This document shows positions 14,084 to 53,685 of a stretch of DNA of 64,000 nucleotides, one piece after another. Source of the DNA: a virus (taxonomy: Duplodnaviria; Heunggongvirae; Uroviricota; Caudoviricetes); IMG/VR virus record IMGVR_UViG_3300031419_000007; one strand, written 5' to 3'. The position numbers were made by a program, and so were the translations under genes. The notes beneath the pieces were generated by a model. The model ran no database searches. It worked only from the letters and a program-made list of their open reading frames with translations, and was not told the DNA's origin. Positions within the stretch are counted from its first letter, which is position 1; every line of letters starts with the position of its first letter.

Positions 14084-14106
14084 AGGTGATCTCCTGTGTG
14101 TCTATG

Positions 14107-14117
14107 TTAGTTATACC
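14107..14117 (-). promoter_or_regulatory. promoter-like motif GGTATAACTAA
   Basis: About 24 nt upstream of the start of the HD-domain gene. Confidence 0.4.
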
Positions 14118-14201
14118 TGTGGATAAAGCATTATTGAGAATTGTACCACAGTGTTACATAGACGTTCCAGGGATTTGGTTGAGATGTAGCCAAAAAAAGA
14201 A

Positions 14202-14436
14202 GTTGGTACGTTTGAACGGAATCTACGTGGAAACCCACACCGCCCTATAGCTTTCTTACCCAAGCATACTGACTCTCTATATATCTTTAAAAAAGCCTTA
14301 GTAAGTAGTTTATAGTATAGGGGAACAGTTACACTATAAAGGGTGTCAAAAGTGACGTACCAAACGTATCGACGTACCAACTCCGAGCAAACCCGCATGG
14401 GATAAGGCTTTTCGTTGGTACGTCGTTGGAACATTA
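14202..14436. repeat. copy 1 of duplicated ~235 bp iteron-like intergenic element
   Basis: About 95% identical to 53409-53648. Four GTTGGTACG motifs (two direct, two inverted) flank an AT-rich core (tctatatatctttaaaaaag) and a TTTATAGT/ACTATAAA inverted repeat. Confidence 0.8.
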
Positions 14437-14949
14437 CGCGTTCCAGAGGTCCTTATAGGCCCGGGTTACGGCATCCTGCGAGGTCGCAACCGTCCAGTCG
14501 ACGACATAGCGGCCCATGCTGGAGCCCATATGATGCAACCAGATGAGAGCGTCCGTCAAGGAGCCGTTGCCAGCCACGATCTCATTGAGGTCGACTCTCG
14601 CGTTCGCTTCCTTCACCCGATCGTAAGCTTCCTTGGTGAATGAAGGCTCATCGTTCAATGCCAAGAGCATGAACTGGAAGATACGAGAGTCACACCCGAA
14701 GAGCACCAGGGAGACGAATCCGACCTCTTCCACCGCTGCCGGATCCACCTGACGGAATAACTCTGCTTGAGCTGCTGCGAAACGGTGAAGGCAGGCGATG
14801 TTCCTCAGGGCGAACTCGACGCTTTCGGGTTCTTTTCGGAGGGTTGCGGCGGCGTGGGCTTGTCGGGTGTTGGCGGCGTCGCGGAGGGCCGCTTTGAACT
14901 CTTCGCCGGAAAAGACCGGACGAAAGATCTGGTAGAGTTGTTCATTCAT
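14434..14949 (-). CDS. hypothetical protein
   Basis: 171 aa ORF; its start abuts repeat copy 1. Confidence 0.5.
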   Translation of the reverse strand: MNEQLYQIFRPVFSGEEFKAALRDAANTRQAHAAATLRKEPESVEFALRNIACLHRFAAAQAELFRQVDPAAVEEVGFVSLVLFGCDSRIFQFMLLALNDEPSFTKEAYDRVKEANARVDLNEIVAGNGSLTDALIWLHHMGSSMGRYVVDWTVATSQDAVTRAYKDLWNA

Positions 14950-53179: not shown

Positions 53180-53408
53180 GAGTAGTCTCCGTTAGAAAAA
53201 ACTAAGGCCGGATGACCGGCCTGAGAACCCCGAAGGGTTTTTAACAAGGAGAACAACATTCATGATTGACTACTCTATTTTACACGAAGGAGGAAGGCAG
53301 CCATCGGTATCATGAACGGGTCCTGCAGTAATCCTACCACAGCGAGCAAACGTGTCAAGTTCCGATGACGTTACAGTGAAAAGGTTGAGGTCTGGCGGAA
53401 AAGTCCCG

Positions 53409-53648
53409 GTTGGTACGTTTGAACGGAATCTACGCGGAAACCCACACCGCCCTATAGCTTTCTTACCCAAGCATACTGACTCTCTATATATCTCTAAAAA
53501 AGCCTTAGTAAGTAGTTTATAGTATAGGGGAACAGTTACACTATAAAGTGTGTCAAGGGTGACGTACCAAACGTATCGGCGTACCAACTCACTGTAAACC
53601 CTTGTGGCATAAGGCTTTTTGTTGGTACGTGGCTGGAACATTTGGCGT
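53409..53648. repeat. copy 2 of duplicated ~235 bp iteron-like intergenic element
   Basis: About 95% identical to 14202-14436, same orientation. Directly upstream of the HU gene promoter. Confidence 0.8.
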
Positions 53649-53685
53649 ATCATTGGTGTATCAAGGATCTTTTGCTAAAAAATAC

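Follow-up and report, generated by a model that had tools for sequence, protein, structure and literature searches.

The 64,000-nucleotide stretch of tailed-phage DNA analysed here (Caudoviricetes; IMG/VR record IMGVR_UViG_3300031419_000007), called the window below, carries two copies of a repeated element belonging to a family that occurs in five near-identical, evenly spaced copies per genome in related phages. The element is not a gene and is unlikely to act as an RNA; it is probably a cis-acting DNA module. Its organisation suggests that the modules are bound by a protein and that they most likely serve as multiple replication origins, a reading which we prefer but hold tentatively. A preliminary description, made from the sequence of the window alone, had recognised a two-copy element. 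The pair is real, but it forms part of a five-copy, evenly spaced, co-oriented family which is syntenic across a phage clade. Among the three roles proposed at that time (an origin with iterons and an AT-rich unwinding region, an operator array or a structured RNA), the origin is the best fit, on the strength of the least stable cores and converging arrays described below; this role is a predicted one.

The two full modules in the window are the following:

14151-14448, minus strand: copy 1, syntenic position A (profile match 14448-14151, E 1e-86 with the profile of its own family)
53357-53655, minus strand: copy 2, syntenic position B (profile match, E 1.1e-86 with the profile of its own family)

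The minus strand is the orientation common to all copies and to the neighbouring genes. A repeat search of the window followed by pairwise alignment gave a direct repeat at 14202-14450 and 53409-53657, so that the same-orientation repeat was found where it had first been placed. The identity of about 95% claimed for it was roughly right: we measured 90% (217/240) over the coordinates used then and 96.7% (174/180) over the central 180 bp (14202-14381 against 53409-53588). The length of about 235 bp was an underestimate, the homologous module being longer, as listed above. The motif GTTGGTACG occurs exactly three times in each copy (+14202, -14373 and +14414; +53409, -53580 and +53621) and nowhere else in the window. 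A fourth site, TTTGGTACG, differs by one mismatch (-14356 and -53563) and gives the order +, -, -, +; the four motifs, two direct and two inverted, of the preliminary description are thus three exact sites and one near match.

An assembly artefact, which would have undone the original observation, was excluded. The copies have unique flanks, and the same element is found at a syntenic site in a cultured, sequenced phage and in several independent metagenome assemblies. In addition, the 40,580-bp contig IMGVR_UViG_3300013105_000038 (loci L012 and L014) is near-identical to the window between 14.2 and 53.6 kb and its two ends lie within the two copies, as is typical when an assembler breaks off at a genuine repeat.

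Open reading frames (ORFs) of 107 and 127 amino acids (aa) do run through the window copies, as had been noticed. A stop-free frame is however restricted to these copies: all 21 of 21 other full-length homologues, outside the window phage, contain at least two stops in each of the six frames. Substitutions between the two ORFs are largely non-synonymous, with many amino-acid changes, and single-base indels in a T/A tract distinguish copies within one genome and shift the frame. The element is non-coding, as first suggested. A protein-coding reading is ruled out, since the embedded ORFs are unconserved outside the window phage; conservation does not follow the ORF. In the cultured relative Arash (OQ632216), gp115c (66238-66405) and gp171c (100204-100371) are annotated as 168-nt hypothetical genes inside the copies at positions B and C; they are probably spurious gene calls.

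With copy 1 as query, blastn gave zero nucleotide matches in 50,697 phage records, and relatives were therefore traced via the neighbouring proteins. The nearest cultured relative is Salmonella phage Arash (180,819 bp), whose neighbouring NrdA shows 75.7% amino-acid identity. At the corresponding position of Arash, gp29c and the phosphohydrolase gp28c are separated by 358 nt, and this gap aligns with the window element. Further syntenic copies, including a third motif variant (GATACG), came from IMG/VR and metagenome contigs, while a scan of metagenomes with the HD-protein alignment (the HD gene flanks copy 1) gave three loci only, including two new, short contigs. With a profile of 16 Arash-type copies, exactly five sites are recovered in Arash and exactly two places in the window, copy 1 (E 1e-8) and copy 2 (E 1.6e-9). 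Homology between the two types is thus statistically supported.

Five copies were located in each of four genomes:

Arash, 180,819 bp: 26.7, 66.4, 100.2, 138.6 and 173.4 kb
UViG_2084038018_000001, 182,612 bp: 21.4, 55.1, 96.3, 130.6 and 168.5 kb
UViG_3300031414_000008, 182,632 bp: 26.4, 63.5, 95.2, 135.7 and 169.9 kb
UViG_3300041405_000299, 172,104 bp, the closest to the window: 0.2, 37.9, 72.2, 106.2 and 141.1 kb

All five copies are co-oriented within each genome and the five positions, A to E, are syntenic across all four. In the 172-kb contig four copies were found first; the 68-kb hole between them predicted a fifth near 72 kb, and a relaxed, shorter core pattern found it at 72.2 kb. The pattern GATACGYCGATACGTYTG, used for this fifth copy, matched the known copies and two unrelated coding sequences only, and a query with Arash gp241 for position-E copies retrieved near-identical relatives of Arash only. 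With the genomes treated as circles, gaps are 31-41 kb (nearly equal, at about 36 kb; coefficient of variation 0.06-0.09). Five points placed at random would be spaced at least as evenly with a probability of 2.5e-5 to 1.1e-4 in each genome, a value to be read genome by genome, as the sites are syntenic and the four genomes are not independent trials. The spacing of the window copies (39.2 kb) is close to the A-to-B interval of Arash (39.7 kb). The paper describing Arash makes no mention of these repeats (PMC10585845).

Each window copy contains ten units of 8-9 bp, M1 to M10. Read 5' to 3' on the minus strand, the layout is M1-M3, a small hairpin, M4-M6, a 123-bp AT-rich core, M7-M9 and M10, and the inner triple arrays converge on the core. 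In copy 1 the parts are:

14389-14444, minus strand: outer left part, M1-M3 and hairpin
14437-14444, minus strand: M1
14427-14434, minus strand: M2
14414-14425, minus strand: M3, the 12-bp inverted partner of M4
14389-14411, minus strand: small hairpin AAAGCC...GGGTTT (general form AAANCC...GGNTTT)
14352-14381, minus strand: inner left array M4-M6 (GTTGGTACGTCG, GATACGTTT, GGTACGTCAC), direct, with a period of 8-9 nt
14229-14351, unstranded: AT-rich core of 123 bp, candidate DNA unwinding element
14309-14340: TATA-rich palindrome in the core
14273-14297: T/A tract GGCTTTTTTAAAGATATATAGAGAG in the core
14202-14228, minus strand: inner right array M7-M9 (ACGTAGAT, TCCGTTCA, AACGTACCAAC), opposite orientation, with a period of about 9 nt
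14161-14168, minus strand: outlying unit M10 (GGAACGTC), about 35 nt beyond M9, between the module and the HD-gene promoter

The corresponding parts of copy 2 are:

53596-53651, minus strand: outer left part, M1-M3 and hairpin AAAGCCTT...AAGGGTTT
53559-53588, minus strand: inner left array M4-M6
53436-53558, unstranded: AT-rich core, candidate DNA unwinding element, near-identical to that of copy 1
53409-53435, minus strand: inner right array M7-M9
53367-53374, minus strand: outlying unit M10 (GTAACGTC), immediately upstream of a sigma-70-like promoter

The preliminary description also named an AT-rich core and a TTTATAGT...ACTATAAA palindrome; both are present, at the positions given for the T/A tract and the TATA-rich palindrome. 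The inverted pairs, described there as perfect over 9-10 bp, do exist but are longer in copy 1, where CGACGTACCAAC/GTTGGTACGTCG and AGTTGGTACGT/ACGTACCAACT are perfect over 11-12 bp and M9 is a perfect inverted partner of M4; M3:M4 of copy 2 is imperfect, with 9 contiguous pairs. The outer left part of copy 1 overlaps the stop codon (14434-14436) of an upstream 171-aa ORF.

Units occupy fixed positions, the triple M4-M6 array lying at the same place in all 25 mapped copies, and in the left arm there are about 6 of them per 100 nt, compared with a background of 0.88. Their consensus is GNWACGYC in window-type lineages and WAAC(G/C)YY in the Arash type; M10 is kept as G(G/T)AACGTC in most window-type copies. 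Perfect inverted repeats surround the core, of 11 bp in the window (AGTTGGTACGT/ACGTACCAACT) and 14 bp in the Arash type, with CAAACGTTGTAACC/GGTTACAACGTTTG cited as a second pair. In Arash, every copy gives a second match to the family profile, in reverse orientation (E 1e-13 to 1e-17), so that the dyad symmetry is a property of the DNA duplex. A -35-like TTGNNA opens units M4 and M6 of copy 1. The innermost left unit (TTGGTA, CTGAAA, TTGTAA or TTCAAA; TTGCAA in the Vibrio phage D69 discussed below) lies, whatever the lineage, 17-19 nt upstream of a TATA-type hexamer (TATAGT, TAGAGT, TATATA or TATAGG) and points into the core.

Inverted symmetry could alternatively reflect a structured non-coding RNA (or single-stranded DNA, or a cruciform) from the minus strand, built from the 12-bp M3:M4 hairpin, a long-range M4:M9 stem and a TATA hairpin. 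Folded in this way, copy 1 reaches -72.4 kcal/mol (z -3.2) and its centroid is the minimum free energy structure. Folded as plus-strand RNA, however, it is almost as stable (-64.9, z -2.3), both strands give similar z-scores across 23 copies, and fold stability is not strand-specific; several copies are no more stable than shuffles (copy 2 z -0.7, L016 z -0.1, L010 z -1.6). The position-A M3:M4 stem persists although its sequence takes three forms, being fully paired in the window and L015/L030 and having 11/12 pairs with one G-U in L029; five pairs have changed on both sides. Yet only 6-8 of its 12 positions are paired at positions B and C of the 172-kb genome. In the ten window-type copies, M3:M4 together with two small hairpins gave marginal covariation (0.129 against 0.103 in shuffles, a value reached by 20/500 shuffles), while M4:M9 had 80% of cells paired, which does not surpass pairing with shuffled partners (131/500 shuffles reached this level). 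RNAalifold on the 16 Arash-type copies returned invariant stems only (covariation term -0.54), and G-U and A-C mismatches occur in both senses. In many copies a terminator lies directly upstream, and in none is there a terminator at the 3' end. At gathering threshold the window matches to Rfam 15 were tRNAs only; copy 1 gave nothing up to E = 10, and an Arash copy gave only chance hairpin-type matches far below gathering score. An RNA role would also leave the spacing unexplained. Taken together, equal folding of the two strands, marginal covariation and the lack of an Rfam family disfavour the structured RNA of the preliminary description, which we consider improbable. At the DNA level, inverted-repeat symmetry may to some degree be selected for, or be favoured by mutational correction.

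In position-D copies only, the last motif pair lies within an extra stem of 10-12 bp whose sequence varies while complementarity is kept (TTGGTGGGTTT/AAACCCACCAA, GTTGAGGTGGGT/ACCCACCTCAAC and GTGTTCAGGC/GCCTGAACAC). This hairpin covaries between three phages, a point which speaks for a folded structure. The copies concerned are:

L004, 40386-40710, minus strand
L018, 3140-3464, minus strand
L025, 5119-5443, plus strand
L024

The cores stand out by their predicted duplex stability. Nearest-neighbour duplex free energies were calculated for segments of 40, 60 and 100 bp. The core reaches 73% A+T, against 47% for the window, and at all three lengths the two window cores take ranks 1 and 2 among the least stable segments of the 64 kb (z +4.2 to +4.5): the copy 1 core is the least stable at 40 and 60 bp and second at 100 bp, and the copy 2 core conversely. 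In the 180.8-kb Arash genome, the five cores occupy ranks 1-5 (z +5.3 at 60 bp; next segment 3.8). In D69, the three cores hold ranks 4-6 for 60-bp segments and ranks 2, 4 and 5 for 100-bp segments.

The sequence of the units differs between lineages (GGTACG in the window, GATACG in L015/L030 and GTAACC in the Arash type), and all units change together. For instance, GTACCAAC/GTTGGTAC of the window is replaced by GGTTACAA/TTGTAACC at every occurrence in Arash. Within a genome the central 100-140 bp are 100% identical among copies and background level is reached within about 130 bp on each side. Comparison across genomes gives only 72-92% identity for the element, a divergence close to that of the flanking genes, and core changes are common to all five copies of a genome. 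The copies thus undergo concerted evolution. Comparison of flank identities revealed no recombination breakpoints across the elements, flanks being 71-91% identical without a consistent step. Judged from the sequences, the lineage-specific motif change implies a putative binder co-evolving with its sites.

A more distant case is provided by Vibrio phages D69, D181 and D148, the only other cultured relatives. Compared with their Arash/window homologues, the terminase of these phages shows 54% identity and a structural protein 32%. When D69 (OZ195729, 186,708 bp), whose gene order differs from that of Arash and the window, was compared with itself and scanned for motif clusters, exactly three repeats of 340-390 bp came out, at 67.5, 125.2 and 185.4 kb, with gaps of 57.7, 60.2 and 68.8 kb. 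Each is ordered as GTTACA units, a GC-rich hairpin between A and T runs, ATGTWGCA units, the core, and then mirrored arrays and hairpin. The GTTACA units (...AAAGTTACAGAAAAGTTACACGACAAACCC...) are to be compared with AAGTTACACGAAAAGTTACAAAGAAACCC of Arash, and the AT-rich core of about 190 bp has GACTTT(Y)T...TATATAGA in common with the window and Arash cores. Two of the three repeats lie in Arash-like contexts, one upstream of the nrd operon and one beside DNA ligase. The D69 repeats are probably, though not provenly, homologous to the Arash/window modules. A scan of IMG/VR with the D69 motif pattern returned unrelated coding sequences only. Two of the three repeats abut HNH/homing-endonuclease genes (65922-67355 and 185661-186284), for which a rough post-hoc estimate of chance is about 1%; these genes may bear on how the copies are kept identical.

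Such uniformity could also arise if the element were a selfish or recombination-driven repeat, either resembling a miniature inverted-repeat transposable element or serving as a homing-endonuclease target kept uniform by double-strand-break repair. The 11-14-bp terminal inverted repeats, the endonuclease genes of D69 and a central identity of 100% decaying outwards, as predicted for gene conversion started inside the element, are in line with this. Nevertheless, syntenic positions in phages whose proteins are 60-75% identical, and plausibly in D69 too, imply that the element is old and immobile. Target-site duplications flanking the inverted repeats were not found, nor was a transposase, and conservation reaches past the inverted repeats. 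Moreover, direct repeats 36 kb apart risk lethal deletions, so that loss would be expected unless they are useful, and even spacing would be unexpected. We regard a selfish origin as very improbable.

To return to replication origins, the following scheme can be drawn from the organisation of the modules. A phage-encoded, sequence-specific protein would bind the repeated units, with a specificity differing between lineages. Binding would open the AT-rich core, where replication would start. The -35-like unit found 17-19 nt upstream of a TATA hexamer in every lineage makes transcription-assisted opening conceivable, and the promoter-like pair may help in a manner resembling the T7 primary origin or T4 oriF/oriG. 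With a shared orientation that follows the main direction of transcription, five origins at intervals of about 36 kb would split the chromosome of about 180 kb into equal replicons. Gene conversion would spread sequence changes to all copies, because all must match the same binding protein. As a broader and more speculative proposal, the chromosome of this clade may be built on a 'ruler' of identical, equidistant initiation or organising modules, five in general and three in the Vibrio branch. Selection would then keep them equidistant despite changes in gene order, and gene conversion would keep them identical for a single co-evolving protein; we see this as possible.

Several results weigh against an origin role. 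No initiator could be pointed out: among the replication and DNA-binding proteins of Arash, the Pfam domains recovered were limited to Toprim/DnaG, SNF2, DEAD and PD-(D/E)XK, and the large primase gp183c contains Toprim/DnaG domains only. GC and AT skews in Arash and D69 follow gene orientation, with no switch at the elements; because they follow transcription, they are uninformative on origins. A sigma-70 consensus scan did not call the -35/TATA pair of the core on the relevant strand, its spacer of 17-19 nt being variable and rather long, and inspection of the core revealed no full match to the phage-type promoter CTCAAT-N16-GGTATAAGTAAG on either strand. The extension to D69 is itself limited, as nhmmer against its repeats gave E 0.013, below significance, and the likeness is one of motif and architecture only; one D69 core is also inverted relative to the other two, showing that co-orientation is not universal. 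Finally, promoters follow closely at positions A, B, C and E, four of the five, the last unit being 2-24 nt from the -35 region.

This last arrangement would suit regulatory cassettes at transcription-unit boundaries, each made of a terminator, an operator array and a promoter, which would time the downstream operons. A phage regulator or sigma-like factor would bind the TTGNNA units, and recombination would keep the repeats alike. Such an arrangement would resemble the promoter/stem-loop cassettes of T4-type phages. The promoters next to the window copies are:

14106-14138, minus strand: HD-gene promoter of the phage type, CTCAAT-N16-GGTATAACTAAC, lying downstream of copy 1; kept in Arash, L015, L029 and L030
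53331-53358, minus strand: sigma-70-like promoter TTGACA-16-TGgTAGGAT, downstream of copy 2 (position B)

In the shared orientation, most Arash-type copies follow an intrinsic terminator, and within 25-110 nt after A, B, C and E there is a promoter, either of the CTCAAT-N16-GGTATAA type or sigma-70-like. At position A this is the phage-type promoter, with the HD/nrd operon behind it, and at positions C and E a promoter of the GGTATAAC type. Units begin with -35-like hexamers (TTGGTA, TTGATA or TTGTAA; TTGCAA/TTGCTA in D69) and the clade encodes sigma-like factors and its own RNA polymerase. However, position D, a convergent gene junction without a downstream promoter, keeps the full module, and the downstream promoters of the other positions differ in type. 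Even spacing, the unstable 123-bp core and the presence of the module at only 5 of dozens of promoters would remain unexplained. A regulatory cassette is therefore an unlikely, if respectable, alternative.

The promoter-like motif (C)TCAAT-N16-GGTATAAGTAAgGTGTAaa occurs at 11 sites on the minus strand of the window, about 25-35 nt upstream of start codons, and is probably read by the phage's own polymerase or a sigma-like factor; one site precedes a tRNA. Only one of the 11, the HD-gene promoter, adjoins a module. The sites on the minus strand are:

8189, 14115, 22325, 23399, 31600, 46334, 47235, 52121, 56646, 60298 and 63130

A perfect DnaA box, TTATCCACA, at 14112-14120 falls in the spacer of the HD-gene promoter. 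It is unconserved in Arash, L015, L029 and L030 and was judged to be there by chance.

The spacing itself is best explained if the modules are genome-organising or boundary sites, the arrays offering regularly spaced places of attachment to gyrase, to a virion or nucleoid-like protein, or to a DNA-binding protein of the phage. Such sites would set loops or supercoil domains, anchor the chromosome in packaging or ejection, or load a tracking factor, and the AT-rich core would serve bending or wrapping instead of initiation. Even spacing is the most direct prediction of a ruler or of domains and holds at five and at three copies. Motif arrays and dyad symmetry imply protein binding, and terminator-like hairpins insulate Arash-type copies upstream and D69 copies on both sides. 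The Arash virion packages many enzymes and DNA-binding proteins (PMC10585845), which is also in favour. On the other hand, there is no reason for organiser sites to be the most easily melted DNA of the genome, and no candidate protein was found. To our knowledge, regularly spaced organiser sites of such size have no described precedent in phages. We give this explanation a minor share of likelihood.

The genes flanking the copies were examined with Pfam. HU (PF00216, E 1.5e-29) lies on the plus strand just beyond copy 2, and a YfbR-like HD 5'-deoxynucleotidase gene just beyond copy 1, the latter by a weak match (25.2 bits against a cut-off of 25.9, E 1.5e-5); its homologue in Arash is annotated as a phosphohydrolase. 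Both neighbours named in the preliminary description were therefore recovered. A functional link to HU was rejected, as Arash has no HU gene at position B and the closeness is incidental. A DUF3307 protein is also among the flanking genes. Upstream of its gene and after the sigma-70-like promoter lies a candidate small RNA or leader of about 135 nt (53195-53328, minus strand), which is better conserved between phages than the surrounding coding DNA. It folds as a long stem of about 26 bp, several G-U pairs of which work only on the minus strand, and it ends in two tandem terminator hairpins (about 53205-53250); it has no Rfam match. Homologous segments are:

L003, 17163-17296, minus strand
L010, 395-528
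L023, 3764-3897
L028, 1872-2005

On the opposite strand, a 17-codon ORF (MIDYSILHEGGRQPSVS; 53263-53316, plus strand) is preceded, at a distance of 9 nt, by a strong Shine-Dalgarno sequence (AAGGAG). In Arash, near-conservation is limited to the first nine codons (MIDYLILHE...); the ORF may encode a leader peptide or may simply result from conservation of the RNA on the complementary strand. Downstream of copy E, after a GGGTATAACTAAG promoter, Arash has an unannotated 155-aa ORF on the minus strand (L005 33528-33995, corresponding to 172528-172995 of the record), near which the record annotates the plus-strand gene gp240. The phage is also rich in tRNA genes, of which the window contains 22, all on the minus strand. 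Two odd ones lie at 38015-38090 and 47143-47219 (minus strand): one has the anticodon CTA and reads amber (ARAGORN 'Pyl'), and the other an irregular loop (ARAGORN '???').

How replication starts and is coordinated in large phages is poorly understood outside T4, T7 and lambda. The origins of T4 are hard to study because they share no motif, whereas the candidate sites of this clade are identical, recognisable, countable and regularly spaced. If the ruler proposal is true, a bacterial virus would for the first time offer a clear example of multiple origins that are uniform and evenly spaced, with equal replicons. If the modules are not origins, equidistant conserved protein-binding sites would point to an unknown layer of phage chromosome organisation. 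The availability of a cultured member (Arash on S. Typhimurium ATCC 14028) makes the question of equal replicons or domains directly testable, and the protein reading the sites, the co-evolution of site and specificity and the upkeep of identical dispersed copies can be tested in the same clade. On a practical level, these repeats break metagenome assemblies and attract spurious gene calls, such as the 168-nt ORFs of Arash and the 107- and 127-aa ORFs of the window.

Several known systems share part of this organisation. In the SV40 core origin, the papillomavirus E1 sites and the DnaA boxes of E. coli oriC, opposed site arrays accompany an easily melted segment. The modules similarly combine opposed arrays of short sites with an AT-rich segment, a geometry which would suit head-to-head loading of two helicase assemblies; sequences and proteins are unrelated, and no DnaA box is conserved.

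T4-type PeSLs, which are short and numerous early promoter and stem-loop cassettes between small genes of hyperplastic regions, and the repeat regions of Campylobacter phages CP81/CP220 are thought to mediate recombination, and are sometimes found beside homing-endonuclease genes. Like these, the modules are non-coding repeats between transcription units, associated with promoters and stem-loops and similar within a genome. Unlike PeSLs, they are about 300 bp long, number exactly five per genome, are regularly spaced and include position D without a promoter; in contrast to both systems, their motif arrays are built around the least stable DNA of the genome. We know of no report of PeSLs or Campylobacter phage repeats being evenly spaced or syntenic across distant relatives.

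In T4 (169 kb), at least five origins are active (oriA, oriC, oriE, oriF, oriG) and have no common motif (PMC3016281). In its oriF and oriG, an AT-rich unwinding element comes after a promoter, and R-loop initiation is unidirectional; oriE contains evenly spaced short direct repeats (iterons), which relatives keep at syntenic sites (PMC3016281). The modules resemble these origins in combining arrays of repeats and a promoter-like -35/TATA pair with an AT-rich core of very low stability, and in numbering five per 172-183 kb. They differ in being near-identical, co-oriented, regularly spaced and concertedly evolving, and in that origin activity is proven in T4 and predicted here.

Further parallels are P4 ori/crr, SPP1 oriL/oriR and lambda ori, in which repeats bound by a single initiator lie beside an AT-rich region at one or two loci. 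The known initiator of such iteron origins is often encoded next to or around the origin, and between related phages repeat sequence co-evolves with initiator specificity. The present modules have in common with them short repeats beside an AT-rich region, a repeat set at more than one locus and, if a binder co-evolves with the sites as proposed above, such co-evolution; they differ by their five loci (three in D69), regular spacing and arrays converging from both sides of the core. What is new here is the conservation, across a clade, of identical, regularly spaced and co-oriented modules.

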